From assembly GCA_050950285.1 (NCBI GenBank), contig JBMNHG010000008.1, positions 682,001 to 746,000 on the forward strand: DNA of 64,000 nt. Direction: 5' to 3'. Below the pieces are notes generated by a model. The model was not told the DNA's origin. It worked only from the letters and a program-made list of their open reading frames with translations, and did no database searches. The stretch is from Kiritimatiellia bacterium. GTDB lineage: Bacteria; Verrucomicrobiota; Kiritimatiellia; RFP12; JBMNHG01. Position numbers and translations under genes: made by a program. Numbering within the stretch: position 1 is the stretch's first letter; the number at the start of each line of letters is the position of its first letter. This document shows positions 1,012 to 51,846 of this stretch, in pieces.

Positions 1012-4000
1012 CTATCGGATGAAGAGGATGGTGCCTTGCGGGCACTGGAACTCGTAGGCGCCGATGTCGTAGCGGCGCATCGAGGGGCGGCGCCTCCCGA
1101 GGATGTCGCGGAAGAGGCCCGCCTCCGCCACGGAGTTCGTGCCGGCATTGATGGCGGGCGAGAATTCCGCGAGGGAATAAGGGTTCGCCGTGTCGGCGGC
1201 ATTGAACATCGGATCGACGCTTGCGTCGCCCCAGAGGTTGCCGCCGAGGTCGTCGAGGAACGGACCGTCCCGGGTGTAGCGGGCGTCGTGCGGGATGTAG
1301 GCGTCGCCGGCGGTGTTGCCGTAGAAGAGGCAGCAGGCGAGGGAACCGCAGACGTCGGTGTTCGGGGGCGATTCGCCCACGCCGGCGTTGGCCTTGTAGA
1401 CGCCGTAGCCGGCGTTGTTCGCGACGATGGTGTTCACGAGGATGGGCTCGGTGTAGTCGCGGTCTTCGGCGCCGCCGTTGGCGTTGCAGAGGACGCCGTG
1501 GGCGCCGTTGTCCGCGACGGTGCAGTTGAAGAGGCGGCATTCGCCGGACTTGGAGCGTCCGTAGGTGACCCAGTTGTGGTCGAAGCTGAGGCCGGAGCCG
1601 GCGTTGTTCGCGATGACGCAGTTCCGGAACTCGATGTCCTCCTTCGATTCGTGGGGACTGCTGACGCCGTAGTGGTTGCCGGTGATCCGGCAGCTTTCGA
1701 TCACGTTGCCCTCGACTTCGCCGAAGAGTCCGACGCCGCCGGAATAGAGCTGGAGGTTGTTGGCGAAGACGAACGTGCCTCCGGTCAGCGTCAGGTTCTC
1801 GACGAGGTTCGAGCAGCCGCCCACGAAGAAGGCGAGCGGCGAGCCGTTGTTTGCGCCCGTGACGGTGGTGGGGTTCGCGGCGGGGTTGCACGCCCAGGTG
1901 GCGGGGTCGTATCCGCCCTGGAGGGTCATGCCGTGCTTGTCGAGGCCGATTTCGATGTTGTCGGCGTACGTGCCTCCGGCGATCTTCAGCACGCCGCCGG
2001 CGGCGGTCTGTCCGATGGCGTGGCGGAGGGTGGCGTATGGGGCGGCGGCCGAACCGTCGCCGGTGGCGTCGCTGCCGGTCGTGGCCACGAAGGTCTCGGT
2101 GCGCAGGGCGGGGGCGGGGTCGCCGGAGCTTTCCTTCACGCCGAGGGTCCAGGCATCGGACGGACGGACGGCGCCGAAGGCATCGGTCGTCAATCCAAAG
2201 TCGGCCGAAAGGTCGAGGCCCGCGCCGATGGCGGGAGAGCCCGTGCGAACGCCGTAGTCGAGCGCGTGGGGATCGGCGAAGAGCGGGTCGCGTCCGGTGA
2301 TGTTCCCGCCGAGATCTTCGAACTTCTGGCCGCTGTAGCTGTTGGCGTAGACGGGGCCGCGCGTGTTGCCGAAGAACAGGCTGTTCCCGACCCTGGGACG
2401 GGGATTGCGCGAGCCGCGCGCCAGGAGCCCGAAACCGCCGTTGCCGGCGACGATCGAGTTCTTCACGTTCGGCATGACATCGTACCAGTCGGTGTTGCCG
2501 TAGTTGCTGTAGCCGTCGCCCCCGTTGTCCGCGATGACGCAGTTGACGACATTGCCGACGCCGCCGAGAGCGGGATTGCTGTGCATCGCGCCGAAGTAGA
2601 ACCCGTGCGAACTGTTCTGCGCCACGACCGTGTTCACCATCGTGAAATGGATGGACAGGTGGTCGGCCGAGTAGATTCCGTAGTAGTTGCTCACGATCAT
2701 GCAGCTGTCGACGAGCAACCCGCTGCTGTTCGCGTTGAAGGCGATGCCTGCCGCATTGTAGGCGGTCGCGCCCTTGAGGGTGAGGTTGCGGAGGACGTTG
2801 TCGTTCGCATCCGTCGCGAGGGTGGCGGCGGAGGTCCCCTTGCCGTCGATGACCGTGAGGAGCGGATTGGCCGTGCGGGTCCAGCCGACGGGATCGTAGC
2901 CGCCGGCGACGGTTGTGCCGCAGCGTTCGGCGGGGAAGGAGATGCATTCCTCGTAGGTGCCGGCGGCGACGTGGATGGTGGAGGTGGCGGTCGTGAAGCT
3001 GAAGGCCTTCGCGATGGAGGCGTAGGGTTTCGCCTGCGACCCGTCGCCGGTGGCGTCGCTTCCGGTGGCAATGCTCACATAGGCGTCGTCGAGCAGCGTG
3101 ACGGAGGCGTCGCCCAGGCCGTCCGACTCGAAGCAGCCCATGTCCCAGTCGTCGCCCTGGGGGCGCGACAGGCCGTCGAGGTCGTCCGTCACGCCGTATT
3201 CGGCGGAGACATCGAGGCCGGCGGCGGCGGCGGGCGACGTTCCTTTCAGGTGGTAGTCGCCGTTCTCGGGATCGACGAACTCCGGGTCGCGCGCGAGTTT
3301 GTTCCCGCCGGTGCAGGTGAAACGGCCGGCGGCGTCGTACCAGTCGCCGGAGGAGTTGGCGTAGAAGAGCGAGTTCGTGACGAATCCGCCCTTGGGTCCG
3401 CCGGAGCGGCGGATGCCATACCCCTTGTTGCCGGCGACGATGCAGTTGATGACCTGGGGCGCCATGACGCCCCAGTCGTCGTTGCCGGAGGATTCGTAGC
3501 CGCTGGCGCCGTTGTCCGCGATGGTGCAATTCACCAGGGTGTTGTAGGTGATGTAGCCCTTGTTGGCCTCCTGGCGGAAGAAGTAGTAGATGCCTTGCCT
3601 GGCATTCTTCGCGATCAGGCAGTTCTTGTAGACTGCGGTTTGGGGCATGCGAACGCCGGAGTAGACGCCGTAGTAGTTGTTGGTGAAGATGCAGGATTCG
3701 AAGAAGGAGTACGGGGCGCTTCCGGTGAATTCGACGCCGGAGGAGGAGGTCGCGCCGGTGAAGGTCAGGCGGCTGAACGAATTCGAGCTCGCGCCGCCGG
3801 CGATCTGGACCACGGGCTTGTTCGCGGCGGCGGAGGTGAAGACCGTGGGATGCGTGGCGGGGGAGCGGGTCCAGGTGGCGGGGTCGTAGGCGCCTTCGAT
3901 GGAGAGTTCCGTCATGGAATTGCCCACGGCGAAGGATTCGGCGTAGTCGCCGCCGGCGATGCGGACGACGCCGCCGGGGGCGACGCGCGACAGGGCCTTC

Positions 4001-6099
4001 GCGACGGTTGCGAACGGGGCGGAGGCGGAGCCGTCGCCGGTGGAGTCGTCGCCGGATGGAGCGACGTGCACTGCGGCGAGGCGCGCGGGTTCGCCGCTGA
4101 CGGGGCATTCGTAGGCGCCGATGTCCCAGCCGTTGTCGGGGCGGGCCGTTCCGAGGATGTCGTCGGTCACGCCCGGAGTGGCGGCGGAGAGGTCCACGCC
4201 GGCCGCGGCGGCGCCGGATCCGGCGACGAGCGTGTAGTCGCGGTTTTCGGCGTCGGTGAAGAGCGGATCGACGCCGTTCTTGATGCCGCCGAGGTACTCG
4301 AACTTGCCTTGGCCGTAGTCGTAGATGTCGCCGGCGGTGTTGGCGTAGAAGAGGCAGTTCTGGATGGAGGCGCCGGAGCTCCCCCCGCGCTTCGTGATGC
4401 CGTATCCGCCGTGGAAGGCGAAGATGGTGTTCTTCGCCACGGGGGGGACGTCGGCCCAGTCCTGGTTGCCTCCGTGCCAGTAGCCCGAGCCGCCGTTGTC
4501 GGCGACGGTGCAGTTGAGGAAGGTGAAGGGGCCGGGGTTGGCGCTATGGGCCACCTGCGCGATGTGTTCGAAATGGACGGCATGGGAGGAGCTGCCGGCG
4601 ATGATGCAATTGCGGAGGGTCGCGCCGCCTTTCTGGTTCCACGCGCCGTAGACGCCGTGGTAGTTGCCGAGGAAGCGGCATCCGTCGCATTCGACGAGAT
4701 GGCCATGGACGGCGAAGCGGAGGCCGGCGGCGTAGCCGTCCGTGGCGTTGCGGAGGGTGAGCGAGACGAGGCGGCAGCCCGTGGCGTCGCAGGAAAGCGA
4801 GGCGACGGTCGCGCCCGCGCCGTCCAAGATGGTTTCGGTGGTCGCGGGGGAGTAGGTCCAGTCGGGCGATCCGACAACATACGCGCCCTTCACCGTGATG
4901 CCTCCCTTCCCGAAGAAGGAGAGGCGGTCGGCGGTGTAGGTCCCGCCCGCGACGCGGATTTCGCCGTTGGCCGCAGTGCGCGCGAGGGCGTAGGCGACCG
5001 TCGCGAAGGGGGCGGAAGCGGAGCCGTCGCCCGTGGCGTCGCTGCCCGTGGCGGCGTCGACGTACGCCAGGGGGAGTTCGGCCGGGGCGCCGGCGCCTGC
5101 GGTCTCGTAGGCGCCGATGTCCCAGCCCGCGACGCCGCGGGGGGCGCCGTCCAGGTCGGTCGTGAAGTATGCGGAGAGGTCTGCGCCGGCGGCGCCGGCG
5201 GCGGAATCCGCGAGGAGATGGTAGTCGCCCGCGGCGCGATCGGCGAAACGCGGCGCGCCGTAGCGGCATGCCGTCATCGCCGGGGAGACGAGGTGCGCGT
5301 TGATGGCGCCATCGCCGTTGGCGTCGAAGAGGCAGTTCTCGACGGTTGCGCCGGGGCGGCAGCCTTTTTTGTAGAAGCCCGCGCGCCGGTTGCCGGCGAA
5401 GAGGGTGTTCTGGATCACGCAGTGCGCGTCGTAGTGGTCGGGATTGCCGGTGTTGGACTGGATGCCGTTGGCTCCGTTGTCGGCGATGGTGCAGTTGCGC
5501 ACGACCAGCGTGCCGATGTCCAGGGTACCGACGTTGCTGTTGTTGTAGAGGATGCCGTCGTAGGCGTTCCGGGCGATCAGCGTGTTCTCGACGGTGATGT
5601 CCTGCGGATGGTAGTTCCCTGCGTTGTGGACCGCGCGCGAGCAGTTGGTGAGGATGCAGTCCGCAATGGTGGTCGTGGCGGCGGCGGCCTGGAGACGGAT
5701 GCCGTCGCACCATCCCCATTCGGGGTTCGACGAGGTGAGCGTGAGCCGGCGGAAGGTGGTGTCGGAGGCCCCTTGGACGAGGGTGGCGACGGTTCCTCCG
5801 TGGCGGAGAATCGTGGGCGAGGCGGATTGCGTCCACGTGTTCGTGTCGTAGCCTCCCACGAAGGTCAATCCCGCTTTGTCCACGGTGAACCCCGCGGCGT
5901 CGTAAAGGCCCGAGCCAATGAGGATGGTGTCGCCGTTCGACGCCGCGTTCACGGCGGCTGCGACGGTGGCGAGGGGGTCGGCCTGCGAGCCGGTCCCCGC
6001 GTTGTCTCCGGCTGGAGCGACATGCCATGTGGCGGCATGGACCGTAGCGACAAGCGCGGACACCGCGCCCAGCGTTGCGAACTTCAACCTGCTTCCCAT
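1012..6099 (-). CDS. Secreted 1695-aa protein with five tandem DUF1565-like/right-handed beta-helix/choice-of-anchor Q modules; C-terminal GTILFIR
   Basis: GGAGG RBS, signal peptide MGSRLKFATLGAVSALVATVHA; five YV..GxDxTGDGS..P.AT starts; NCTxADN ladders; DP.F.D....DY.L...S...G..D..G..R...DIGAYE ends. Confidence 0.88.
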   Translation of the reverse strand: MGSRLKFATLGAVSALVATVHAATWHVAPAGDNAGTGSQADPLATVAAAVNAASNGDTILIGSGLYDAAGFTVDKAGLTFVGGYDTNTWTQSASPTILRHGGTVATLVQGASDTTFRRLTLTSSNPEWGWCDGIRLQAAAATTTIADCILTNCSRAVHNAGNYHPQDITVENTLIARNAYDGILYNNSNVGTLDIGTLVVRNCTIADNGANGIQSNTGNPDHYDAHCVIQNTLFAGNRRAGFYKKGCRPGATVENCLFDANGDGAINAHLVSPAMTACRYGAPRFADRAAGDYHLLADSAAGAAGADLSAYFTTDLDGAPRGVAGWDIGAYETAGAGAPAELPLAYVDAATGSDATGDGSASAPFATVAYALARTAANGEIRVAGGTYTADRLSFFGKGGITVKGAYVVGSPDWTYSPATTETILDGAGATVASLSCDATGCRLVSLTLRNATDGYAAGLRFAVHGHLVECDGCRFLGNYHGVYGAWNQKGGATLRNCIIAGSSSHAVHFEHIAQVAHSANPGPFTFLNCTVADNGGSGYWHGGNQDWADVPPVAKNTIFAFHGGYGITKRGGSSGASIQNCLFYANTAGDIYDYGQGKFEYLGGIKNGVDPLFTDAENRDYTLVAGSGAAAAGVDLSAATPGVTDDILGTARPDNGWDIGAYECPVSGEPARLAAVHVAPSGDDSTGDGSASAPFATVAKALSRVAPGGVVRIAGGDYAESFAVGNSMTELSIEGAYDPATWTRSPATHPTVFTSAAANKPVVQIAGGASSNSFSRLTFTGATSSSGVEFTGSAPYSFFESCIFTNNYYGVYSGVRMPQTAVYKNCLIAKNARQGIYYFFRQEANKGYITYNTLVNCTIADNGASGYESSGNDDWGVMAPQVINCIVAGNKGYGIRRSGGPKGGFVTNSLFYANSSGDWYDAAGRFTCTGGNKLARDPEFVDPENGDYHLKGTSPAAAAGLDVSAEYGVTDDLDGLSRPQGDDWDMGCFESDGLGDASVTLLDDAYVSIATGSDATGDGSQAKPYASIAKAFSFTTATSTIHVAAGTYEECISFPAERCGTTVAGGYDPVGWTRTANPLLTVIDGKGTSAATLATDANDNVLRNLTLKGATAYNAAGIAFNANSSGLLVDSCMIVSNYYGIYSADHLSIHFTMVNTVVAQNSSHGFYFGAMHSNPALGGVGNVVNCVIADNGGDGYSNYGNTDWYDVMPNVKNSIVAGNGGFGLLARGSRNPRPRVGNSLFFGNTRGPVYANSYSGQKFEDLGGNITGRDPLFADPHALDYGVRTGSPAIGAGLDLSADFGLTTDAFGAVRPSDAWTLGVKESSGDPAPALRTETFVATTGSDATGDGSAAAPYATLRHAIGQTAAGGVLKIAGGTYADNIEIGLDKHGMTLQGGYDPATWACNPAANPTTVTGANNGSPLAFFVGGCSNLVENLTLTGGTFVFANNLQLYSGGVGLFGEVEGNVIESCRITGNHYGVSSPHESKEDIEFRNCVIANNAGSGLSFDHNWVTYGRSKSGECRLFNCTVADNGAHGVLCNANGGAEDRDYTEPILVNTIVANNAGYGVYKANAGVGESPPNTDVCGSLACCLFYGNTAGDAYIPHDARYTRDGPFLDDLGGNLWGDASVDPMFNAADTANPYSLAEFSPAINAGTNSVAEAGLFRDILGRRRPSMRRYDIGAYEFQCPQGTILFIR

Positions 6100-7704: not shown

Positions 7705-10700
7705 TTACCGCAGCAGGAAGAGGGTGCCCTGGAGGAAGATCTCGTAGGCGCCCATGTCCACGCGGTCGTCGACGATGCGCGGGTTGTGCCCGTTGAGGTC
7801 GGTCGCGGCGGCCATCCACGCGATGTTCGTCCCGGCGTTCACGCAGGGCGAGGAGCCCGTGATGCGGTAGTCGCCAGCCGAAGCATCGCGGAAGAGCGGG
7901 TCGGCGGAGAAGGAGGCCGCGTCGATCGCGAGGTTCGTGTCGGTTCCGGCCGGCCGGGCGACGAAGTTCCCGGAGGGGTTGCCGTAGGAGCAGGCCGACG
8001 CGACGCCGCAAGCGTAGTTCTCGTTTGCGGGGTCGCCGTCCACGAGGAGGCCATAGCCGCCGTTGAAGGCGGTGATGGTGTTGAGCACGGCGTTGCCCTT
8101 CTTGTGGCGGTTGTAGCCGAAGAGGATGCCGTCGCCGTTGCCCGCGACGGTGCAGCTCTCGAGGCGGATGTCGCCCGCGCCGCCCGCGCCGGCGCCTGCG
8201 GCGGCGTTCCCGGCCACGAGGCATTGGCGGAGCGTGGTTCCTTCGGCCAGCTCCTGGATCCACCCGTTCGCCGGCTGGTAGTTGGCGGAGGCGACGCCGT
8301 CCGCGCCGTTCCCGGTGATGCGGCAGCGGTCGAGGAAGACGCCGGGCGAGCCATCCACGGTGCATCCGGCGGCGATGTTGCCGACGAGGGATCCGTTCAC
8401 GAAGTCGATGCGGAAGGAGGTGGCGTCGGCGGCCACTCCATTCGTGCATCCGCTGGCGGAGCAGTTCGCGAAGCGCACGCCGGCGGAGCCTTCGATGGAG
8501 AAGCCGTCGCCGGCGCAGTCGGCGGCGGCGAGGCCTTCGATTTCCACCTCCGAGCAGTCGACGAGGCGGAGGCCGGTGCCGGAGGCGGCGGAAAGGACGG
8601 CGCCGGGGGCGGCGACGATCTTCACGGGGCGGGCCTCCGTGCCGACGGCGGAGAGGACCGCCGGATTGGTGTAGACGCCGGCGGCGACGCGGATGGTGTC
8701 GCCCGGGACCAGCGCCCTGGCGCAGGCGTTGGAGAGCGTCGCGAAGGCGCCGTCGGCCGTGTTGGCGAGGCCGTCGTTGGCGTCGTTGCCGTCGGGGCGC
8801 ACGTAGTACGTGGCGGAGGCGGGCCAGGCCAGGCCGGCGCCCTGGTACGAACCGAGGTTCGAGCCATCGGCGGCGGCGCCGATCACGGGCGAGCCGATGT
8901 ACACGGCGCCGTCGTCGCGGACGTCGATGGCGGCGAGAAGCGGGTCGGCTCCGTCGAGGACGTTGCTCTCATGGGCGGAGGCCGCCGCGTTCTGGCCGTT
9001 GTTGCAGTCGGTGATCGCGAAGTGGCCGTTGCCCCAGAAGTGCGAGGCGTAGGTGGGGACGTTGCCGTGGCTGCAGAAGACGCCGCCGAAGAAATTCGCG
9101 GCGAAGAGGCTGTTCGTGACCACCGGGCCCTGCGGCCAGAGGCCGTAGTCGCCGTATTGGTCCACATAGGGGCCGACGCCGAAGGAATCGTTCCGGGCGA
9201 AGGTGCAGTGGTCGATGAACCAGCCGGAGGTGTTCGTGTCGCTCATGCCGAGGGCGACGGCTCCGTTGCGCACGAAGGTGCAGTAGGCCGCGCGGAGGTT
9301 GGGGCAGGTGTTCTGCCCGTTGATGCCGGCGCGGACGCCGGCAAGGGCATTGCCGGCGAAAACGCACCGGAGGAGCGAGACGCCCACCGAGTTGCCCAGC
9401 GCGAGACCGTTGCCGGAGCAATCGCGGAAGGCGCTGTCCACGACCTTCGCGGCGTTGCAGCCGGAGAGCGAGAGGCCGTTGCCGGCCGCCGCTTCGACGA
9501 CGCAGTTCGTGAAGAGGAGGTTCGCGCCGTTGAGGGCGGCAATGCCGGGGCCTCCCAGGACGGTCGCGCCCTCGACGATGACCTGCGAGCAGTTCGTAAA
9601 CGAGAGGGCCGGCTCGTCGTTCGCCGAGGCGATGGTCGCGCCCGCTTCGAACAGGATGCGGATGGGCAGAACGCTCGTGCCCGGTGCATCCACAAGCGCC
9701 GCGGGGCCTTCGTAGTCGCCGGCGGTGACGTGGACGATGTCGCCCGCCGAAGAAACGGCGTCCAGGGCGCGCGCGACGGTGGCGAAGGCGCCGACCGAGG
9801 TGTTCTCGAGGCCGGTGTTCGAGTCGTCGCCGTCGGGGCGCACGAAGTATTCGCGGGCGTCGGAGACAATCTCCACGCCGGCGCCCTGGTAGCAGCCGAT
9901 GTTGCCGCCGTCCGAGGCCGCGCCCAGCACGGGCGAACCCGCGAAGACGGCGCCGTCCATGCGGCCGGCTGTCGGACAGAGCATCGGGTCGGTATAGAGG
10001 CAGTCGCCGAGGTCGCACACATCGGCAGACTCGAAGCCGTTGCCGCCGAAATCGCCCTGCGCGTTCGTCCAGAAGAGCGAGTTCGTGGCATAGAGGGTGC
10101 CCCACATCATCTGGAGGCCGCATCCGTCGTTGAACGCGAAGATGCAGTCGGCGAGCGGCGCGCATTCATGATAGATGCCGGTCGGGAAGGAACCGCCATT
10201 GGAACCATAGCCGGAACCCGTGTTCTCGACGAAGGTGCAGTGGTCGAACGACCAGGGCGAGGCATTCACGTTGAGGCCGACGCCGAGCATGCCGTTTCCG
10301 GCGAAGTAGCAGTAGCGGCCGTACGTGCCCACGCAGGGGTTCTTGCTGCCGTCCCAGCCGCCGTCGCCGCCGACGAGGCCGCACTGGCCGTTGTCGACGA
10401 AGGCGTCGTGCAGGAACGCCATGCCGGCGGAACGATCGAACCAGAGGCCCTGGGCGGCGTTGTTGGAGAAGACGCAGTCGACATACGTGCCGAAGTTCGC
10501 ATCGTGGTGCTCGACGCCCGACGACGCGCAGGAGGCAAAGACGCAGTTCGTCACGAAGGTGTTCGGGGAGTTGGCGACCAGCAGGCCGCCGCCGTTCGCC
10601 ACGGTGAGGCCGGAGACCCTGACATACGTCGAATCCTGGATCGCAAGGCCCACATTGACGCCGGGCACGGAGACGATTGCGCCCTCTTCGCCGATGATGC

Positions 10701-13383
10701 TGGCCGGTACCAGGCTGGACCCCTGGAGATTTTCAAAGGTCACGGCGCCGGTGTAGGTGCCGGCCGCGACGTGGACGGAGTCGCCGGCGCCGGTCATCGC
10801 CGAAGCCGCGCGGGCGAGGGTCGCGAAGGCGCCGTCGGAGGTGTTGGCGAGGCCGTCGTTGGCGTCGTTCCCGTCGGGGCGGACGTAGTAGAGGGTGCCG
10901 GCGGAGACCGGCACGCCGGGGCCCTGGTAGCATCCGAAGTTGGAGCCGTCGGCTGCTGCGCCGAGCGCGGGCGAGCCGACATAGACGGCGCCGTCGGCGC
11001 GATTCACGTACGAACAGAGACATGGATCCTGGTCGAAGAGGCATCCGCCGAGGTTGGCGTTGAGGACGTGGTTCGGATCGCTGCCGGCGATGGCGGCGAC
11101 TGCGTTGCCGTAGAAGATCGTGTCGGCCGTGTAGTGCTGGCTCGCGTGCATGTAGTAGCCGGCATTCCCGTTGGCGGCGACAATGCTGTTGGTGAGCATG
11201 TGGTTGTTGCAGTAGTGGCTGGCATCCTGGTTGCCGAAGCCGTAGCCGTTGTTGCCCACGATGGTGCAGTGGTCGACGACCCAGCCGCTGCAGCCGGACG
11301 CCGCCATGCCGATGCCATGGCCGCCGTTGCCGGCGATGAAGCAGTAGGACATGTGGATGTTGTTGTAGCCGCTTTCGAACCAGCCGCCGATACCGATGCT
11401 GATGCCGCTGCCCGTGTTGCCGGTCGCGACGCAGCGCGAGACGGCGACCTCCGCGCTCTTTGAAAGCGAGAGGCCGTGCGAGGCGTTGCCGGAGAAGACG
11501 CAGTCCACGAAGGCGGCGCGGGGGCTGTCCTCGACCGAGGCGCCGGCGGCCGCGCTCGACGTGAAGACGCAGTTCGAGACCAGGCTGTCGCCGCAAGCGG
11601 AGAAGTGCGCTCCGTTGCCGCCCCGGACCGTCAGGTTCGCCATCAGCAGGGCGTCGCTGGCGCCGGAGAAGGCCAGGACACTGGCTGAGGAACCGGTCCC
11701 GTCGATCACGGTTCCGGCTGCGGCGCCCGTGCCCCGGAGGACATTGCTGCCGGGCTGGATCGGGAAGGTTTCGCCGGCGGCCGCGTCGTAGGTGCCGGGG
11801 GCCAGGTGGAGCGTAAGGCCGTTGTCGCCGACCTCCGAAAGCGCGTGGGTGAGGGTGCGCCACGGCGCTTCGGGGAAGCCCGTGCCCGTGGCGTCGCTGC
11901 CTTCGGGCGAAACGTAGTAGTCGAGGACCAGGATGGAGACGTTGGTGGTCGCGGTGGCCACCACCCCGAGGTTGTTGGTGACGTAGAGCGTCACGGCCGT
12001 CGGCCCGTAGACCACGGACGGGCTCACGCCCATCCCGTAGAGGCCCACGAGGTCGTCATGGCTTCCGTTGTCGATGTTGGCGGCCGTGACGGGGGCCCCG
12101 TTCTCGGCGGCCGAGGCAGGAACCGAATAGCCCTTCGCAAGGGCGACGGGCGCGACCGTGGAGGGATCGACGTATTCGATCGTGGAGGAGGAGGACGAGA
12201 CCAGCCCGCCGGAGCGGACGTGGAGCCACACGGTCACGTCGCCGTAGGGCGTCCCCGAGGGGAAGGAGTACATCGGCATCGGGGCGGACGCGCTGTACGC
12301 GATCCAATCCCCTGCGGAGAGGTTCGCGGGGTCGCTTTCGAGGGAGAGCTGGTAGTCGTCGCCGGCGGACATCCCCGGCAGGTAGCCCGCCACGACGGTT
12401 CCGCACGCCGTATAGAGGGGGTTGCCCTGGAAGGAATCGCACACATAGAAGCTTGCGGGCCGGAAGCGCAGGACGACGACGCCGTCGCCGCCCTTGCCGC
12501 CGATGGTCGCGGGGTTGAATCCGCCGCCGCCGCCGCCGCCGCCGCGGCCGTCCACGCCGTCGTCGCCGGGCAGGTTGGCGTCCTTCGGGCCACCGGCTCC
12601 GGCGGAGGCGCCGCCGCCGGAAGCGTGGGTGATGGCGTTTCCGCCGCCGCCGCCGCCGCCGGCGCCATAGTCGAGGGACTGCCCGGTGATGTCGGACACC
12701 ACGCCGGGACCGCCCTGGCCGGCCTTGTTGTCGGCAGAACCGTTCGCGCCGTCGCCGCCGGCGCCGCCGCCGCCGCCGGGGGCGTTGTCGTTGCCGCCGT
12801 TGGCCCGTGCATTGCCGCCCTTGTAGACGATGCCGGTACCGCCGCTGGCATTGTTCCCGCCGGAACCGCCGCCGCCGTTCGCGATGGGCGCCTGGTCGGA
12901 GGTGCTGACGGCGACCCCTTCGTTCCAGCCGCCTCCCGCGCCGCCGCCGTAGGCCGTCACCGTCGAAAGGCCGGGGACCGACAGCGTGGAAGCGCCACCG
13001 CTGTTCCCCCTGCCCCAACTTCCCGCGTTGGCGCGGGCGCCGCCGGCGCCGACGGAAAGGGAGATGTTGCTGCTGACCAGGCTGTCGGGAGCCATGGAGA
13101 CGACACCGCCGCCGCCGCCCCCGCCGCCGATCGTGCAGCCGCCGGAACCGCCGCCGCCCACCACGAGCGCCTCCGCCAGGATCAGGGCGGTCTCCGGCGT
13201 GACCGTGATCGCGCCCGCCGCCGCATTGGTGAAGACGTATACGGACGTCCCGTCCGTTCGCGTAATCTTCGCGACGGACGAATCCGCGGTCGAGATCAGA
13301 TCGTCCTGGTAGGCCGATGCAATGCCAATGGACAGCGCGAGCGCCGCTCCCGCCGCCATGAAGGAGGAAACCATACCCTTCAT
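7705..13383 (-). CDS. Secreted 1892-aa protein: N-terminal glycine-rich domain, four beta-helix modules, choice-of-anchor Q; C-terminal GTLFLLR
   Basis: Signal peptide MKGMVSSFMAAGAALALSIGIASA; LVVGGGGSGG...GGKGGDGVVVLRF domain; four YYV.P.G.D starts; terminal DLNGHNPRIVDDRVDMGAYE. Confidence 0.88.
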   Translation of the reverse strand: MKGMVSSFMAAGAALALSIGIASAYQDDLISTADSSVAKITRTDGTSVYVFTNAAAGAITVTPETALILAEALVVGGGGSGGCTIGGGGGGGGVVSMAPDSLVSSNISLSVGAGGARANAGSWGRGNSGGASTLSVPGLSTVTAYGGGAGGGWNEGVAVSTSDQAPIANGGGGSGGNNASGGTGIVYKGGNARANGGNDNAPGGGGGAGGDGANGSADNKAGQGGPGVVSDITGQSLDYGAGGGGGGGNAITHASGGGASAGAGGPKDANLPGDDGVDGRGGGGGGGGFNPATIGGKGGDGVVVLRFRPASFYVCDSFQGNPLYTACGTVVAGYLPGMSAGDDYQLSLESDPANLSAGDWIAYSASAPMPMYSFPSGTPYGDVTVWLHVRSGGLVSSSSSTIEYVDPSTVAPVALAKGYSVPASAAENGAPVTAANIDNGSHDDLVGLYGMGVSPSVVYGPTAVTLYVTNNLGVVATATTNVSILVLDYYVSPEGSDATGTGFPEAPWRTLTHALSEVGDNGLTLHLAPGTYDAAAGETFPIQPGSNVLRGTGAAAGTVIDGTGSSASVLAFSGASDALLMANLTVRGGNGAHFSACGDSLVSNCVFTSSAAAGASVEDSPRAAFVDCVFSGNASHGLSLSKSAEVAVSRCVATGNTGSGISIGIGGWFESGYNNIHMSYCFIAGNGGHGIGMAASGCSGWVVDHCTIVGNNGYGFGNQDASHYCNNHMLTNSIVAANGNAGYYMHASQHYTADTIFYGNAVAAIAGSDPNHVLNANLGGCLFDQDPCLCSYVNRADGAVYVGSPALGAAADGSNFGCYQGPGVPVSAGTLYYVRPDGNDANDGLANTSDGAFATLARAASAMTGAGDSVHVAAGTYTGAVTFENLQGSSLVPASIIGEEGAIVSVPGVNVGLAIQDSTYVRVSGLTVANGGGLLVANSPNTFVTNCVFASCASSGVEHHDANFGTYVDCVFSNNAAQGLWFDRSAGMAFLHDAFVDNGQCGLVGGDGGWDGSKNPCVGTYGRYCYFAGNGMLGVGLNVNASPWSFDHCTFVENTGSGYGSNGGSFPTGIYHECAPLADCIFAFNDGCGLQMMWGTLYATNSLFWTNAQGDFGGNGFESADVCDLGDCLYTDPMLCPTAGRMDGAVFAGSPVLGAASDGGNIGCYQGAGVEIVSDAREYFVRPDGDDSNTGLENTSVGAFATVARALDAVSSAGDIVHVTAGDYEGPAALVDAPGTSVLPIRILFEAGATIASANDEPALSFTNCSQVIVEGATVLGGPGIAALNGANLLFTNCVVEAAAGNGLSLSGCNAAKVVDSAFRDCSGNGLALGNSVGVSLLRCVFAGNALAGVRAGINGQNTCPNLRAAYCTFVRNGAVALGMSDTNTSGWFIDHCTFARNDSFGVGPYVDQYGDYGLWPQGPVVTNSLFAANFFGGVFCSHGNVPTYASHFWGNGHFAITDCNNGQNAAASAHESNVLDGADPLLAAIDVRDDGAVYIGSPVIGAAADGSNLGSYQGAGLAWPASATYYVRPDGNDANDGLANTADGAFATLSNACARALVPGDTIRVAAGVYTNPAVLSAVGTEARPVKIVAAPGAVLSAASGTGLRLVDCSEVEIEGLAAADCAGDGFSIEGSAGVRFANCSASGCTNGVAADATSFRIDFVNGSLVGNIAAGCTVDGSPGVFLDRCRITGNGADGVASANYQPANGWIQELAEGTTLRQCLVAGNAAAGAGAGGAGDIRLESCTVAGNGDGILFGYNRHKKGNAVLNTITAFNGGYGLLVDGDPANENYACGVASACSYGNPSGNFVARPAGTDTNLAIDAASFSADPLFRDASAGDYRITGSSPCVNAGTNIAWMAAATDLNGHNPRIVDDRVDMGAYEIFLQGTLFLLR

Positions 13384-39340: not shown

Positions 39341-42300
39341 TTATTTCAGGAGGAAGAGGGTGCCGACAAGGGGGGCTTCGTAGCAGCCCATGTCGACGCG
39401 GGCGCCGAGCTTGCGCGGATTGCCGGCGAGATCGGTCGCGCCAAGCATCCAATCCGCATTCAAGCCGGCGCCGACGCCGGCGGACGGGCCGGCGAGACGC
39501 CAGTCGCGATTGGCGGCGTCCTTGAAGGTGACGTGCGTCGCGATGTTGCCCTCGCCGTAGCCGATGCCTTCGACGGCCGAATAGGCGATGCGCTGGTTGG
39601 CGTCGGTGAGGTCGCGGATCTCCGACTTGCCTTCGTCGTAGTTGTCGGCGACCACGCAGTTCACCGCCCTTCCGCCATTGAGGTAGAGGCCGACCGCGGT
39701 GGTCAGGCGATCGCGCAACGTGCGGTTGGCGGCGATCGTGCAGTTCTCGATGACCGAACTGCCATCGGCCATGACGGCTGGACCCGTGGCTCCGCTGGCC
39801 GAATCGACCTGGATCGTATAGTTGTCCGCGATGAGGCAGTTGCGCACGATCGCCGAGCCGGCCATCCGGACGCCCGAAATGCAATGGCCCAACCAGCCGG
39901 CGTCGCCGGAGCAGTTGTTCGTGACGATGCAACGGTCCATGAGGACGTCGGCGCCACAGAGATACACCGTGGAGCGCCACTGCGGGTTGCTGCTGATGGA
40001 GTTGCGGAAGATGCAATCCACCACGTCCACGTCGGACGCGGAGTTGACGTTCACATACAGTGCGGCGGCTTCCGGATTGCCAGCGTTGAGGCATGCGTCG
40101 AAAACGCAGTTCGTGATCAGGACGGTCGTCTTGTGCGACGATGTCACGCACAGCCCGCCGCCAGGCTGGGCGGAGGTCGGCGCGAAACCGCGAAGCGTCA
40201 CGCCCTGCAGCAGGAAGTTCTTGGAGGCGGCCATGGCGCGCGAGCCAAACCCCGGCGCGCGGGCGACATCCGTGCGCTCCGGGCCCTCGCCGATGACCTT
40301 GGCGTCGAATGAGGCGTTGAGCGTTCTGCCAAGCGGGAAGGTCCCCGCGCCGACAAGATGGAAGACGGCATTCGTGAGGCCGGCGGCGAGTTGCGCTTCT
40401 TCGGCGGCCGCGATGGCGTCGTCAAAGCGCGCGGCGGCGGTGTCGATCGTCGCGTACGGGAAGGCAGGCGCCGGCGAGCCGCCGTCGCAAGCCACGAACA
40501 TCTCTTCGGCAAAGACCTTCACCGCGCCGGGCAGCCCGTACCCGACTTCGGTGTGGTTCGGCAACGTCACTTCGAGGGCGGCATCGTGGCAGCCATGGCC
40601 GAAGGCGCGTTCAATCTGCGCGTAGTCGTTGCCGGAGCCGCCGACGGTGTTTGTCGTGTCGCCGCACGAGAAGGTCCAGGTGAATGCGACGCCCGTATAG
40701 TCGGAAAGCGTCACGCCATCGGCGACGACGGTCGCGGTGAATGTCGCGGTTGCGCTGTCGATCGCAAAGCCATTGGCAACGGTGAAGGTGACGCTGTTGT
40801 CCGGCCTCTTGAATTCGTAGCATCCCATGTCGGTCGCGGGAGTGCCGTCGGCATCGCCGTCGAGCGGACGCGCCACGCCGTCCAGGTCGTTCGTGATGGT
40901 GGCGTAGTCGTTGCCCTGGTCGATGCCGGCGGAGCCGAGCGCGAGGTGGAAGTCGTTGTTGTCGAAGTCCACGAACGAGGGCGTCGCGACGATGTTGCCC
41001 GTGCCCGAAACCGTCGTGTCGCTCATCGAATAGGCGATGGATCCGCCATTCTTCCTCACGTTCGCGAGAGAGATGCCCGCATAGTTGTGCGCGAAGATGC
41101 AGTTGCGGACCTGTCCGTTTCCGATCGTGAGGCCGACGCCGTCCGTGCTGTTCAACTTGGTGCTGATGTTCGAGACGACCGTGCAGTTGTACGCCTTCGC
41201 GGCGCTGCTCGAAAGGGTGAGGCCGGCAACGCCGTAAAGGCCCTTGTTCCCGGTAACCAGGCAGTTGCGGATTTCGGCTCCGCCCGCGACCGTCACGCCG
41301 GGCGTGTAGATGCCGTCCTGGGGGGAATATCCCCAAGTGCTCGCGTTGTTCGTGACGAAGCACGATTCCATGAGGGAGGTGCCCTCGAGATAGACCATGC
41401 CGATGGGGTCGCCGGTATTGCCGCTGATGTCGCAATCGGCCACGCGCCCCGCGGAGGCGTAGATCGCGCCACCGGTCATGCGGGATTGCGCACCGCTGTT
41501 GTTCCCGCGGAAAAGGCAGTTCGACACGACGGAATCGCCTTCAAGGCAGATCCCATTGCCGCGGAGGCCGTAATTGTTGTTGATCGCCGGAATGGTAAGG
41601 TCATTGCCATTCGAGGTGACATTTTGCTTGCCCCTGAGACGGAGGCCGGAAACGGAGGCGCCATTCGCGGTCACCCTCAACGCGCGGCTGATGTTCGACT
41701 CGGAGAGGAAATGCGTCACGTCGCGCCCCGCGCCCACGACGTCGATGGGGTCGGTCACGTTGGGGCACGCGTGGATGGCGTAGATTCCAGCGGCGACATC
41801 GACACGGACCTTCGTCCCGGAAGCGCGTGCGAACGCGCATGCCGCCTCGATGGCCTCGGTCGCGTTCGTGGCGGCCGTTTCAGGCGAGTCGAACGGGAAC
41901 TCGTGCGCGCCGTCCGGGGCGCAATAGACCCGGGTGGGGATGGTGGCGGGCAGTTCCCGCGTCCAGACGTTGTCCGCGCCCGGCGGAAGGAGCGAGGTGG
42001 ACGTCGTGTTTGTCACCGTGCCGTTGAGCCAGTCATAGTCGGAGCGGAGCCCCGTCGCGATCATGGTGTTGCCGGAGATCGTGCAGCCGATGACCTTGCC
42101 CATCAGGTTGAAGACGCCCGCACCGCTTGTGTTGCGCGTGCGATTTCCAGTAACCGTGCAGTCGACGAGCTTCGCGCCGTTGTGGGCCAGGAAGACGCCC
42201 GCGCCGATGTAGTATCCCGACGTGTTGCGCGTGACGACGCAGTTGGTCGCCATGCAGCTGCCATGCAGCATCACGCCCGAACCCAGCGCGCCAAAGTTCC

Positions 42301-42901
42301 ATGCGCCGCTATCGTTCCAACCGACGCGGCAGTCGCTGATGGTCGAATCGGCGAGCGTGCCTTTCGTCATGTAGACGCCGCACCCATACGCGCCATGGAT
42401 GTAGTAGTTCGAGACAACGCAATCGACGATGGTCGCGACCTTGTCCATCAGGATGCCGCCGCCCTTCACGCGCTGGCCGCCAAGCCACGCGCCTGTGCTC
42501 CGGACGATGCAGTTGGTGAGAACCGCGTTGTCCGCGTTCATGTAGACCGTGAGACCGCTACGGGTCGCATTGATCGACGTGGCGCCCTGTTCGAGCGTAA
42601 AGCCGGAGATCGTCGCCGCGCCCGTCACGAGGAGCACGCGCTTCGTATCGTCGGAAGCGGTGGCGCTCGTCGCGCGGAGGATGGTGCTTTCGGGACCCTC
42701 GGCAGAGACAAGCGTGATCGCCTTGTCCACGACGAACTGCGATGTGCACTCGTACGTGCCCGGCCCAACCTCGATCGTATCGCCGGCGCTTGCTCCCGCG
42801 ATGGCCGCGGCAAGATCGTCGCCTTGAAACACTGGAATCGTCGCGCCCAAAGCCGCGCCCGCCATCAGTCCACACGCAATCGCCGAATACAACGCCTTCA
42901 T
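39341..42901 (-). CDS. Secreted 1186-aa protein with three beta-helix modules and choice-of-anchor Q; C-terminal GTLFLLK
   Basis: GGAGG RBS, signal peptide MKALYSAIACGLMAGAALG; NC.I..N ladders; DLDGVAR...DMGCYE and DLAGNPR...VDMGCYE. Confidence 0.87.
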   Translation of the reverse strand: MKALYSAIACGLMAGAALGATIPVFQGDDLAAAIAGASAGDTIEVGPGTYECTSQFVVDKAITLVSAEGPESTILRATSATASDDTKRVLLVTGAATISGFTLEQGATSINATRSGLTVYMNADNAVLTNCIVRSTGAWLGGQRVKGGGILMDKVATIVDCVVSNYYIHGAYGCGVYMTKGTLADSTISDCRVGWNDSGAWNFGALGSGVMLHGSCMATNCVVTRNTSGYYIGAGVFLAHNGAKLVDCTVTGNRTRNTSGAGVFNLMGKVIGCTISGNTMIATGLRSDYDWLNGTVTNTTSTSLLPPGADNVWTRELPATIPTRVYCAPDGAHEFPFDSPETAATNATEAIEAACAFARASGTKVRVDVAAGIYAIHACPNVTDPIDVVGAGRDVTHFLSESNISRALRVTANGASVSGLRLRGKQNVTSNGNDLTIPAINNNYGLRGNGICLEGDSVVSNCLFRGNNSGAQSRMTGGAIYASAGRVADCDISGNTGDPIGMVYLEGTSLMESCFVTNNASTWGYSPQDGIYTPGVTVAGGAEIRNCLVTGNKGLYGVAGLTLSSSAAKAYNCTVVSNISTKLNSTDGVGLTIGNGQVRNCIFAHNYAGISLANVRKNGGSIAYSMSDTTVSGTGNIVATPSFVDFDNNDFHLALGSAGIDQGNDYATITNDLDGVARPLDGDADGTPATDMGCYEFKRPDNSVTFTVANGFAIDSATATFTATVVADGVTLSDYTGVAFTWTFSCGDTTNTVGGSGNDYAQIERAFGHGCHDAALEVTLPNHTEVGYGLPGAVKVFAEEMFVACDGGSPAPAFPYATIDTAAARFDDAIAAAEEAQLAAGLTNAVFHLVGAGTFPLGRTLNASFDAKVIGEGPERTDVARAPGFGSRAMAASKNFLLQGVTLRGFAPTSAQPGGGLCVTSSHKTTVLITNCVFDACLNAGNPEAAALYVNVNSASDVDVVDCIFRNSISSNPQWRSTVYLCGADVLMDRCIVTNNCSGDAGWLGHCISGVRMAGSAIVRNCLIADNYTIQVDSASGATGPAVMADGSSVIENCTIAANRTLRDRLTTAVGLYLNGGRAVNCVVADNYDEGKSEIRDLTDANQRIAYSAVEGIGYGEGNIATHVTFKDAANRDWRLAGPSAGVGAGLNADWMLGATDLAGNPRKLGARVDMGCYEAPLVGTLFLLK

Positions 42902-47066: not shown

Positions 47067-50000
47067 ATGAAACGATTCGCATTGGCATGGTCGGCCGCGG
47101 CGACGCTCGCGTCGCTCGCGAACGCCTGGACGATCCATCCGGGGCTCCTGCAGGCCAAGACCGGCGCCTGGAACACCTGGGAGCAGACGGCCGCGGGGGC
47201 CGAAAATTTCGCCGCGTCGGCGATCCCGCTTGAATGCGCGCCGGGACCCGTGATGTGCGACACGCGGCAGAGCCTTGTGAATCCCTGGACGGGCACGACC
47301 ATCGCCTGGTTCAACGGCAGCCCCACCATGTGGAGCTACAAGGGGCAGATTTACCTCACGGCCGGCACGACCTACGCCTTCGGCAAATACCTTGCCGATG
47401 GCGCGCGCGTGCAGATCGACGGGACCAACGTCATTGAAAACGGCACGGCCTCCGACTTCGCGACGGGCGTCTTTGTGCCCGCGGAGACCGGCTGGCATTC
47501 CTTCGACGTGCGCGCGTACTCGGTCGGCGGTTCGAAAGGCCCCGTTGGCGGCGACTGGGGCGAGGCGATGGGCCTCGCCTGGAATACGAACGGCATCACG
47601 GGCGACGGCAATCCGGCCACCGCAGGCTGGACGACGATCCGCGACTCGGGCGATGCGTCGGTGCTGCGCCATGTGGACGAGTCCGCGTCCCCCGCGCACA
47701 TCGTGAAGGCGAAGCCGACGGCGTCCGGCTACGACATCCGGCTTTCGCTTGCCGGAAGGGCCACCGGCACCGCGACCGTCGGCCTTCGCGCCGCGGGCGG
47801 CGACATCGCCGTCGGCGGCACCCTGGGGACGGACTGGACCACGGCGTCCGTGCAGTTCGACGAGTTCTACGAGGAGAAGACCGTGAGCGTGCCGTGGACG
47901 GCCGGGACGGAACCCCATGTCGCCGTGTACGTCGACGGGCAGGATGCGATCGGCGGGACGGCGGGCTTCACGGGCTGCACGCCGGTCCGGCCCGTGGGCG
48001 ACTATGTCGCCGAGCGGACGATTTCGGTGACGCCGCTTGAGGGCGCGGGCGGAATCACGAACTTCAACGTGGTGGTCGACGGCGGAAGAGCCGGGCACAG
48101 CAATTCCCTCTTCATGGCCTACGGCGCCATGCCGGGCGGGGAAACGCCCTCGAGCTGGGCGGACTACACGAATGTCGCGACGCTCGGGGCCGGACGCCAG
48201 GAGGTCGACGTGCCCGTGCCGGAAGGGTGGGGCGAGACGGCCTTCAACGTCCGTTTCTTCGTCGCCGACGGCATCGTGCTGCCGTACCGCATGGAAGTCG
48301 AATACCTGCATTCGAACGGCAACTCGACGTTCGCCGACATCGGCTACACCATGACGCCGACCTCGAAGGTCGTGCTCCGCTTCCGCTATGCCCAGCAGAG
48401 CGGCGGCCTCTTCTTCGGCAACGGCGCCGGCACGGATACGCGCGGCTACTACTTCCGGTTCTTTGCGATCCCCTCCAACGTGATCCTCGACATCAACAAC
48501 GAGGGCGAAGGCCGCCTCTGGTGCGGCCCGGTCGATCCCGCCACGGCGTATCTCTTCGAAATCGGCAACGCCTATGTCTACAATGCGAACGTCAACATGT
48601 ACTGGGGGCAGGAAGGCAAGATGCCGTTCGAGACGCTGCAGAAGCCGGCGACTCTGATGACCACCTACGACTACGGCTCGATCTACTTCATCAACATCCG
48701 CCACAACGATGTGGACGGCGACGTCTACCAGGCGATTCCCGTCGTGGGGTGGAACGGGCAGACCGCGCTCTACGACAAGATTTCCGGCACGATCCATCAT
48801 TCGTTCCTGGAAGACGGCTTCGAGGACTTCGTGCCGGGGCCCGTGGTCGCGAGGGGCTGCCATCCCGACGCCGTCAACGTCGCGTCCGCCCTCGTGCATC
48901 TGGAGTCGGTCTGGATCGAGGAGAAGCCGGTCGTGTCCAAGAACGCGCAGGGCGCGTTCGAGGTCCATGCGAGGCTGGAAACGGGCGTTGGTTCGGTGAA
49001 GGCGGTTTACAACGGAACCGCGGAGCAGGAGCTGTCGGCGTCGGCGTCGGGGCCCGAGGAGTTCACGGAGCCGGTGCGGCCGCTCCCGACGAACACCACC
49101 TACTCCTGCACGGTCGTCGCGACGGACGCCTCGGGCAGGCAGGCCTCCCGGACGGCGGAGGACTGTTTCTACATGGGCGGGCTGACGGTGGCGAAAACGG
49201 CGGACGCTTCGGAGACCTACCTTTCCGTGCCCGGGACCTTTGTCGTCTCCCGTGCCGATACGAACGGCAATCTGGCGGTGAACTACACGCTGTCCGGCAC
49301 GGCCGCGGCGGGGACGAACTACCTCGCCTTGTCCGGCTCGGCGGTCATCCCCCGCGGCGCGACCTCGGTCGCGATCGACGTCATGCCGCTGATGGATGCC
49401 GGAACGGAGGAAGACACGACCCTGGTGCTGACCCTGGCCGAAGGCCTGTACTTCGGCGTCGGCGCGTCGGCGGCGATGACCATCGCCAACCTGGCGCCGG
49501 AGGAAGGCTACAAGACCTGGATCGCCGAAGCGGATGCGAGCGGCAATGCCGACATGGCCGCCCCCGCGAACTGGTCCGGCGGCACCCTGCCGGGCGAGGA
49601 CGACATCGTCCTGCTCGACCCCCGCTTCTCCTCCGCCAGCTTCACCTGGGACACGGCCGTCGTACCGTCCGTGAAGGGCTGGGAGCAGCGCGAGGGCTTC
49701 ACCGGACGCGTCGAGTTCGTGACGACCTATCTCGAAGCCGTCCCCGCCGGCCGCCACGAATTCGTCATCGACGGCGACGTCTTGCTCGAATCGGGCACGT
49801 GGACGCATCGGGCCAATCCCGGCGCGGGCGGCGTCGACACGTACCGTCTCGCGGTCCGGATCAACGGCGACCTCGCGGTGGGCGAAAACGCGGCGATCGC
49901 CGCCGACGGGCTCGGCCCCGTCACGCGGGAAGGGCGCGCGGCGTGCGCCCATGGCGGCGATGCGCAGAGCGACGGCGCGGCCTATGGCGATCCGAAGAAC

Positions 50001-51846
50001 CCCTACTGGAACGGCATCGGAAGCGTCGATCCCTTCGGCTACAGTCCGTCGCATGGCGGCGGCGCCATCGCGCTCGCCGTCACGGGCGCCGTCGAGGTCG
50101 CGGGACGCATCTCGGCCGATGGCGTTCCCGGCGAGCACATCGGCGCGAGCGGCGGTTCGATCGCGATCGCCGCGAAGTCGCTCGATCTCGCGGAAACGGG
50201 CGCGATTTCCGCAAACGGCGTCGTCGGCGACCACAACAGCGGATCGGGCGGACGCATTGCGCTCGCGCTCGCGGAGACGGCGTTCGACGCGCGCGGACAT
50301 CTCTCCCGCATCACCGCGTACGGCGGGGCCGGTTCGGCGTTTACGGGCGCCGCAGGAACGATCGCCGTGCGCAATCCCGGCGAGGCGAACGGCACGCTCT
50401 TCGTCCGCAACGATCCGAACCGTCCGTTCAACCGCTGGGCCTATGCGTACCATGCAAGCATCCGGGAGCTGACGACGCTGCCGACGAACGCGACCTGGAC
50501 CTTCGACGCCGTCGCGATCGGCGACTTCGCGACCCTGCGCGTCGGCCCGGGCTCCACGCTCGTGCTGCCGAACGGCTTCGCTTCCGTTTCAGGACTGGGC
50601 GGCCGCTACGCGACCTATGGCCTGATGCTGGACGGCGGCGCGATCGCGGCCGCGAAGACGGACGGAGTCCACGCGTTCGGCGAGGGCGCCTTCTTCTTCC
50701 CGCGCTCGGACTTCGCCTTCGATGGCGACGTGACCGTCGCGGACGGCGGAACGATCGGCGCGCTGGCGATTCGCCACACCTGGACGAAGGACGAGGAAGA
50801 CGAGGACGTGCCGGACGAGTCCTTTGCCTGCCGCTTCACCGTGAACGGGAACCTCACGGTGGCGGGAGGCGGACGCATCGACGTCTCCCTCGGCGGCGTC
50901 GGCGGCGAGGCCTACAATGTCGGCTACTTCGCCGACCGCGCCCGGCGGGCATGGCGGACAGAACGCCGCGTATGGCGGCAACAGGACGCACGACAGCGTG
51001 TTCCATCCGTGCCTCGGCTCCGGCAACAGCGGCGGCAACCAGGATTTGCCGCAGATCGGCGCGGGCGCCGCCGCGTGTTCTCCGTTTCGGGGCTGCTCAC
51101 GGTCGACGGCGCCGTCTCCGCCGATGGCGTGGGCTCGCCGTATTTCGGCGCTTCGTGCGGACAGGGCGGCGGATCGCTGGACATCACCGCCGGCTCCCTG
51201 GCCGGCACGGGGACGATCTCCGCGAACGGCGGCGAAGGATTCCCCGCGGACGACAACCTGCGATGGAATCTCTGGAAGGGGTATGCCCGCGGCGGTGGAG
51301 GCCGCGTCGCGGTGCGGCTGACGGGAACGGGCGCGACCTTTGCGGGTTTCGGCGCGGAGCGCATAACGGCGACGGGGCGCTATTCGAATCATCATGCGGC
51401 CGGCGAATATGACCGCACGCCCCTGGCGTCTTCGGCGGGCACGGTCTATCTCCAGGCCGCCGGGGTCCCGGAGGGCAGGGGCCTTGTCGTCGTCCGCAAC
51501 ACGGGCGCGGCCGAAGAAGAGGATTGGGCGCACTCCGTCACCTGCCTGCCGTCCGGTACGCGCGGGGACGCGGCGGAGGACTTCCGCCTGTCGTCGCTCG
51601 AGATCGCGGCTGCGGCGCGTGTCAAGCTCTACGCCGATCTCAGAATGAAGCAGCTCGTCCTGGACACCGCGTCGTCGCTGGACCTCAACGGCCGGCGGCT
51701 CAAGGTCGAGGGCGCCCGGATCGACGGCATCCGCCTGTCGCCGGGGGACCTATACGGCCGCCGATCTGGACTGTCTCGCGGATTCGGGGGATGGCGCCAC
51801 GGGTTCGCTCGTCGTCGCCTGCGGCGTTGTCTTCATCATCAGGTAA
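47067..51846 (+). CDS. Secreted protein of about 1590 aa (PA14-like and Calx-beta-like segments, two Gly-rich repeats) with three apparent frameshifts; corrected C-terminus GVVFIIR
   Basis: ATGA overlap with the GH16 stop; signal peptide MKRFALAWSAAATLASLANA; coding frame shifts at about 50940, returns at about 51072 and shifts again at the G5 run 51743-51747, ending TYTAADLDCLADSGDGATGSLVVACGVVFIIR*. Confidence 0.8.

Follow-up and report, generated by a model that had tools for sequence, protein, structure and literature searches.

Introduction

LPXTG motifs, PEP-CTERM segments and the domains of the type IX secretion system (T9SS) are C-terminal signals, each of which led to the discovery of a dedicated envelope machine. 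Kiritimatiellia are poorly known polysaccharide-degrading bacteria from digesters and guts. In this study, we analysed a stretch of 64,000 nucleotides from a Kiritimatiellia genome (GenBank assembly GCA_050950285.1, contig JBMNHG010000008.1, forward strand; hereafter the window), in which five large exported proteins end in a tail of seven residues, typically Gly-Thr, four hydrophobic residues and a terminal Arg. The host genome, referred to as G000, comprises 4.05 Mb in 12 contigs with a guanine-plus-cytosine (GC) content of 66% and is 99.35% complete; the window is G000:C8:682001-746000, and positions within it are counted from its first nucleotide. A first-pass annotation had proposed that the tail is a candidate lineage-specific export or surface-attachment signal of no recognized family.

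PEP-CTERM signals (PF07589, TIGR02595), the substrates of exosortase (PF09721), stand like the tail at the extreme C-terminus of Sec-exported surface-type proteins, directly after choice-of-anchor domains; they occupy the same slot in homologues and run from a hydrophobic stretch into a basic end. Unlike them, the tail has no PEP motif and no membrane helix, only four hydrophobic residues and a single basic one, matches no family model, and is not tracked by the distribution of exosortase. The C-terminal domains of the T9SS (type A, TIGR04183; type B, TIGR04131 or Pfam CHU_C) are likewise export or anchoring signals, found on large adhesins and C25 peptidases, and the last strand of the type B domains may resemble G-x-h-x-h-h-R (h, hydrophobic residue); the T9SS signal, however, is a folded domain of 70–100 residues, whereas the tail has 7–9. 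The beta-signal of outer-membrane proteins, recognized by BamA/BamD, is a short C-terminal strand-type signal on Sec-exported proteins that is read at the free C-terminus, but in it polar and hydrophobic residues alternate, its last residue is aromatic, and it closes a barrel; the tail shares none of these features. LPXTG signals, the substrates of sortase, have a small Thr-containing motif followed by a hydrophobic stretch and a basic end; the tail differs in its motif and in lacking a membrane helix, and its host is diderm. Peroxisomal targeting signal 1 (Ser-Lys-Leu-COOH), which is read by a tetratricopeptide repeat (TPR) receptor, serves as no more than a working analogy: it is also a very short tag at the very end of unrelated cargo, but compartment and organisms are different, there is no homology, and a TPR receptor for the tail would be speculation.

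Results

Five exported proteins of the window end in the same kind of tail

The tail-bearing genes of the window are as follows, the lengths of proteins 1–4 being those with the most plausible starts.

1012..6099, minus strand: gene 1, a 1695-residue exported beta-helix protein (Beta_helix, DUF1565, choice_anch_Q) ending in QGTILFIR; tail codons 1015-1035, stop codon 1012-1014
7705..13383, minus strand: gene 2, a 1892-residue exported protein (Gly_rich_2, Beta_helix, NosD, choice_anch_Q) ending in QGTLFLLR; tail codons 7708-7728
17187..19658, minus strand: gene 3, an 823-residue exported protein (fn3, Big_9, an unnamed jelly-roll as last domain) ending in GGTLILLR; tail codons 17190-17210
39341..42901, minus strand: gene 4, a 1186-residue exported beta-helix protein (choice_anch_Q twice) ending in VGTLFLLK; tail codons 39344-39364
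47067..51846, plus strand: gene 5, an exported protein of about 1590 residues (start MKRFALAW..) ending in CGVVFIIR; tail codons 51823-51843, stop codon 51844-51846; lies in two frames in the window
51742..51746, plus strand: the run of five G that breaks gene 5; public contigs have four G

Translation of the gene ends placed all five tails where the first-pass annotation had put them, each ending exactly at the stop codon. Proteins 1–4 each begin with a clear Sec-type signal peptide, and a signal peptide also starts the long open reading frame (ORF) of gene 5 at 47067. As had been claimed, the domain content ahead of the tail varies according to Pfam and NCBIfam matches, from Beta_helix, DUF1565 and NosD to Gly_rich_2 and to fn3 with Big_9. 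The remainder of the window encodes the housekeeping proteins Dxr, PFK, PheS and PheT, a GH43, a GH16, a 2081-residue secreted protein, transposases and RHS proteins. Neither the GH16, nor the 2081-residue protein, nor the cytoplasmic enzymes, nor any other non-carrier gene of the window has the tail, in agreement with the earlier reading.

The tail of gene 5, GVVFIIR, lies one frame off the long ORF, with the frame switch at the G run. The contigs of four out of four public runs, from four studies, have one base fewer at 51743, which indicates that gene 5 is intact in nature and that the window contains a homopolymer error; the single-slip correction made in the first pass was therefore right. 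This tail has Val at the position where 57 of 60 genome tails (see below) have Thr. The window also lacks one C after 52045 relative to the public contigs (two out of two covering runs). The surplus G and the missing C suggest that homopolymer errors occur elsewhere in G000, in which case further genes that look frameshifted could be intact.

In proteins 1, 2 and 4, the match to choice_anch_Q (NCBIfam NF041518) ends 10–12 residues before the C-terminus, at residue 89–90 of the last 100. Scores on these last 100 residues were 40.1 bits for protein 1, 31.2 for protein 2 and 22.0 for protein 4 (below the cut-off of 25), and whole-protein scores were 88.3 bits for protein 1 and 42 bits for protein 4. 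The domain thus directly precedes the tail in the three proteins for which this had been stated, and choice-of-anchor Q is a domain expected just before a C-terminal sorting signal. No sorting-signal model of Pfam or NCBIfam matched the tail, either in whole window proteins or in 13 C-terminal 100-mers searched at E values up to 10; CHU_C, Por_Secre_tail, TIGR04183 and TIGR04131 gave no match in the same 100-mers. Full-text literature searches, judged from their result listings, returned no description of it.

The tail is strongly enriched at protein C-termini throughout the genome

A total of 17,371 stop-to-stop ORFs of at least 100 residues were collected from the six frames of G000. Sixty of them end in G-x-[LIVFM]4-[RK] and 45 in GT-[LIVFM]4-[RK], against 0.017 expected for the latter from five internal occurrences of the same heptad in 5.2 million positions. 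When the pattern was back-translated into DNA, it was found 47 times before a stop codon, once before GCN and never before GAR. The C-terminal enrichment is not due to chance.

In a sequence logo of 60 tails, Gly occupies position -7 in 48, position -6 is Thr in 57 and Ser in 3, positions -5 to -2 hold Leu, Ile, Val, Phe or Met (with four Ala at -5), and the last residue is Arg in 57 and Lys in 3. Pro is enriched at -11, -10 and -9 (10, 15 and 18 of 60), and Glu is not enriched there. Among the 2,444 proteins called by a crude purpose-made gene caller, 62 end in x-[TS]-h4-[RK], of which at least one, a 273-residue membrane protein, is a chance match. Five identical repeat-element ORFs ending in DGAVILLR (on C10, C2, C4 and C8, plus variants) are chance mimics outside the tail family.

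The carriers are large, with a median length of 1,052 residues versus 358 for all proteins, and 34 of the 195 proteins with at least 1000 residues bear the tail. A signal-peptide-like start was found in 55 of the 62 carriers versus 330 of 812 non-carriers of at least 450 residues (Fisher p 4e-14), using a home-made, crude heuristic that tries alternative starts and is loose, as its 41% background rate shows. The seven carriers it missed include some fragments and one protein whose signal peptide is obvious. The test proposed in the first pass, enrichment on secreted relative to other proteins, was thus strongly positive. Substrates of type I secretion lack an N-terminal signal peptide; all five window carriers and, by the heuristic, the same 55 of 62 genome-wide have one.

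The tail is a flexible extension outside the last folded domain

Twenty-three of the 62 tails follow a choice-of-anchor-Q ending of the form D-x-G-x-Y-E with a linker of 3–8 residues, and the sequences ahead of the other 39 are unrelated. The last 260 residues of protein 3 were modelled with AlphaFold from a 13-sequence alignment, with a mean predicted local distance difference test (pLDDT) score of 79.7. The jelly-roll of this model extends to residue 251, and the nine residues at the very end, GGGTLILLR, are coil, with pLDDT below 50 at 254–257. Among 13 homologues of this last domain, two have canonical tails, two have variants and one has another end; in the other eight the domain is N-terminal and precedes a nuclease domain, without a tail-like strand behind it. 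These results demonstrate that the tail is a free flexible extension beyond the last folded domain and is independent of the fold.

They bear on the possibility that the tail is a structural element, completing the C-terminal domain as its last beta-strand or cap and having no address function. Many carriers do have a strand-like h-x-h-x-h segment and a Pro-x-Gly turn before the tail, and a second AlphaFold model, of the choice-of-anchor-Q type, draws a hairpin between the DMGCYE strand and the tail; this model, with a mean pLDDT of 44.5, is uninformative and was not used. Against such a role, the same tail follows unrelated domains across linkers of varying length, and is low-scoring coil in the confident model, and homologous domains occur without it. 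We consider a purely structural role very improbable.

The tail occupies the slot held by PEP-CTERM signals in homologues

Searching species-representative genomes with the last 400 residues of protein 4 yielded 31 loci, in which the sequence after the shared VDMGCYEA motif was compared. Three loci end in the tail or a tail-like variant, namely a Kiritimatiellia metagenome-assembled genome (MAG; 61% identity), a record labelled Lentisphaerae and a gut Kiritimatiellaeota MAG. Three others end in PEP-CTERM-like signals, and the remaining 25 run off the locus or continue into further domains. The tail therefore occupies the slot that PEP-CTERM holds in homologues elsewhere. In G047 and G103, both tail-less, the regions that match the choice-of-anchor-Q end are internal and the proteins continue into other C-terminal domains.

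This shared slot raises the question of whether the tail is a shortened PEP-CTERM, either a truncated signal still handled by exosortase or an inert remnant. It is built like a small version of that three-part signal (Pro-x-Gly-Thr, hydrophobic stretch, basic end), and exosortase, which was found in 40 of 40 genomes, would be compatible with a universal reader. However, the Pro enrichment at -11 to -9 comes without Glu and makes no PEP motif, and four hydrophobic residues replace about 18, too few for a PEP-CTERM-type membrane anchor, as the first-pass annotation had noted. G000 has two exosortases, and PF07589 matches its proteins in eight places (five over the cut-off), on small proteins, none of which is a tail carrier. 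These classical PEP-CTERM proteins have VPEP-[GSA]-[TA], about 18 hydrophobic residues and several basic residues (RRR). Since they have their own PF07589 matches beside the tail carriers in one genome, the two signals coexist and are distinct. Exosortase is equally present where tails are absent, and the exact length and position of the tail are conserved across families, contrary to what an inert remnant would show. A shortened PEP-CTERM is in our view distinctly unlikely.

The C-termini of C25 (gingipain/PorU-family) peptidases vary in a similar way. Members of this family end in the tail in G000, G025 and G001, relatives in the tail-less family f19 stop a few residues after the GDPA motif of the domain, and relatives in f21 and f15 have a different end domain finishing in F/Y-x-R-h-x-h. 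G000 has two Peptidase_C25 proteins (C8:383152-385809 and C8:755155-758766), one with the tail. Many exported proteins of tail-less lineages share a different C-terminal domain finishing in F/Y-F/Y-R-h-x-h-(x)-P, and the same ending is found on a 4049-residue protein of G000 (C2:613342-625491). It may represent a further unnamed end domain, used in alternation with the tail.

Several Kiritimatiellia families are rich in the tail and others show background counts

The strict DNA pattern had at least one match in 82 of 301 genomes sampled across the phylum, with a background of 0–2 per genome in a backward-read control. High counts were confined to the order of the window (47 in G000, up to 31 in family f6, 4–9 in f10) and to one genome of another order (G291, with 29). 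A relaxed pattern, Thr-h4-Arg-stop, was counted in 53 genomes together with its control. Matches/control were 58/9 in G000, 27/3 in G001, 44/3 in G021, 40/3 in G218, 28/2 in G230, 24/4 in G233, 18/2 in G015, 65/4 in G022, 33/9 in G016, 28/4 in G034, 39/3 in G008, 38/9 in G025 and 33/6 in G291. With the same pattern, all 10 genomes of genus g11, which belongs to the same order and has genomes of 1.7–2.5 Mb, were at control level, as were families f14, f19, f23, f15, f16, f18 and f21 of the class. Several families of the Kiritimatiellia thus have many tails and others do not rise above background, and the survey bore out the description of the tail as a lineage-restricted addition at the exact C-terminus. 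Homologues of protein 4 in other families carry GTVLFLR, ETILILR and ATFLLMR, and this drift of residues within the pattern indicates selection on the pattern and not on one sequence.

No candidate reader follows the distribution of the tail

The first-pass annotation had also suggested a dedicated transporter or processing enzyme. Candidate profiles were compared between tail-rich and tail-less genomes (40–53 genomes), and none of nine candidate families or proteins tracked the tail. Exosortase PF09721 was, as noted above, in every genome, tail-rich and tail-less alike. The M50 peptidase encoded beside gene 3 was present in 39 of 40. An extra Omp85 was no better a candidate, most tail-rich genomes having one copy. 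C25 peptidases, found in 26 of 53 genomes, were missing from the tail-rich G021, G230 and G015 and present in the tail-less f19 and f21; the FadL/PorV-like PF03349 was missing from the tail-rich G291 and G021 and present in the tail-less f14 and f23. A CBM9-like family of about 1300 residues occurred only in G000, G001, G008, G027 and G291 of 40 genomes. A giant TPR/YfiO-like protein of 2,727 residues matched strongly in 7 of the 15 tail-rich genomes and in none of the 25 tail-less ones; it was the sole tested candidate never seen in a tail-less genome, but it was missing from the tail-rich f6, f12 and f10. G000 has two copies of this protein of about 2,700 residues with a YfiO/BamD-like segment (C8:660087-668270 and C6 at about 388-396 kb), one of them directly upstream of a PilM-PilN-like-secretin cluster.

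Secretins bear on the alternative of a type II secretion system (T2SS) signal, in which the tail would be a linear tag read by a T2SS component that passes folded beta-helix proteins through the secretin. Beta-helix pectate lyases are classical T2SS cargo. G000 has six secretin genes (C6:58795, C3:423637, C8:287891, C8:673146, C2:827926 and C2:27645), two of GspD type, together with GspE, GspF and pseudopilins, and a GspD gene lies directly upstream of the tail gene C3:420357-423455. However, this is the only one of the six secretins that adjoins a tail gene, and no PDZ-type GspC was seen in the cluster. Secretin copy number was 4–8 per genome throughout the class, tail-less families included, and 2–4 in the tail-less genus g11. 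When secretin orthogroups of G186, G191, G021, G291 and G089 were compared with those of G000, none was shared by G000, G021 and G291 while missing from G186, G191 and G089. A T2SS signal is therefore an unlikely explanation. Several G000 secretins adjoin PilM/PilN-like genes, with no pilins nearby.

The S41 peptidases relate to a further alternative, a periplasmic quality-control or turnover tag, in which a tail-specific or HtrA-type protease would recognize the hydrophobic C-terminus. Non-polar C-termini are recognized by Tsp/Prc and PDZ proteases, and S41 peptidases were found in 40 of 40 genomes, but with one copy in the tail-rich f1 and f6 versus 2–3 in tail-less families. To our knowledge, a charged terminal Arg is unlike the known Tsp signals, and degrading about 2% of the proteome, comprising its largest proteins, would be costly. 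A turnover tag is accordingly very hard to credit.

A universal machine could also read the tail if it mimicked the beta-signal and docked on BamA as the final strand of a barrel in the outer membrane does. The beta-barrel assembly machinery (BAM) is known to read C-terminal strands, and BamA, found in 40 of 40 genomes, would be consistent with there being no reader restricted to one lineage. The barrel-type proteins of G000 nevertheless end in alternating residues and Phe (GFRF, LQLQF, AFEF), whereas the tail has four consecutive hydrophobic residues and Arg, and the absence of a BAM-type terminal aromatic residue noted in the first pass holds good. No barrel precedes the tail, and the autotransporter barrel PF03797 was not found in G000, where carriers end in the tail. 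We regard mimicry of the beta-signal as scarcely probable.

Components of other systems were searched for in G000 as well. Sortase PF04203 was not found. PorP/SprF (PorP_SprF) was not found either, other T9SS components not having been searched for, and SprA_N gave no match, but its control matched in no genome.

Among the 290 genes lying within three genes of a tail gene in G000, no recurrent envelope or peptidase family was found. The sole large recurrent neighbour family consists of 23 exported CBM9-like proteins of about 1300 residues, 11 of which are within three genes of a tail gene. These have weak CBM9, FlgD_ig and propeller matches and end in W-G-x-h-x-F(E); members include C8:560365-564270 and C2:635267-639190. 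G000 also has a two-partner secretion pair (C11:336706-342684), composed of an Omp85-type transporter and a protein whose N-terminus is haemagglutinin-like. At C2:629368-634215, a second Omp85 lies beside a YadA-like protein of 911 residues. Both loci are absent from most relatives, which have a single Omp85.

Other features of the window and the genome

Transposase genes lie at 43533-44984, 52713-54455 and 55585-56748 of the window and, elsewhere in G000, at C2:625693, C11:335516 and C8:297601. The N-terminus of the 580-residue DDE transposase encoded at 52713-54455 recurs at other loci. RHS-repeat protein genes at 58805-64000 run past the right end of the window. Contig C9 of G000 (5,854 bases) has a GC content of 34% versus 66% for the genome and is possibly a contaminant or a mobile element.

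Discussion

Taking these results together, we favour, as on balance probable, the reading that the tail is a minimal tag at the C-terminus of Sec-exported surface-type proteins, predicted to sort or anchor them without a transmembrane segment. The tag consists of a short Pro/Gly-rich linker of variable length, a near-invariant Gly-Thr, four aliphatic or aromatic residues and a terminal Arg, rarely Lys. After cleavage of the signal peptide, a periplasmic or outer-membrane receptor might bind the tail as an added beta-strand, reading the terminal Arg with its free carboxylate, and might then direct its cargo to the surface of the outer membrane or through it. A cut behind the invariant Thr is no more than conceivable. 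Given that no lineage-specific reader emerged, the receptor may be a machine common to all Kiritimatiellia, with the tag as an invention on the side of the cargo; put more generally, the reader may be a housekeeping machine or a family outside those profiled.

Several points weigh against this reading. All nine reader candidates fail the phylogenetic profile, and the neighbourhoods of the tail genes offer no recurrent envelope or peptidase family in their place. Four hydrophobic residues cannot span a membrane, so that anchoring would need a partner. The localization of the carriers is a prediction from sequence; the heuristic behind the signal-peptide count is a loose one, and one of the two structural models is uninformative. 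The interpretation given in the first-pass annotation is thus partly supported: the tail as a lineage-restricted addition to exported proteins and its lack of a named family stand, a role in export or surface attachment is a prediction, and the dedicated machine does not emerge from the genomes compared.

A more far-reaching proposal, which we advance tentatively and hold to be possible but rather doubtful, is that Kiritimatiellia, together with some relatives labelled Lentisphaerota, have a new Sec-dependent pathway of surface sorting defined by the tail, which would be the shortest known bacterial C-terminal sorting signal, one without a membrane segment. It would be read by a periplasmic or outer-membrane receptor or transpeptidase, which might cut after the invariant Thr and join the cargo to an envelope component.

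About 2% of the proteome bears the tag, and among proteins with more than 1000 residues the share is one sixth. For annotation, it flags its carriers as envelope proteins and exposes assembly frameshifts such as that in gene 5. If the tail is indeed an address label, seven residues without a membrane anchor suffice for one; the surface proteome of these bacteria could then be predicted by a simple rule, and the tail would point to a new sorting machine.

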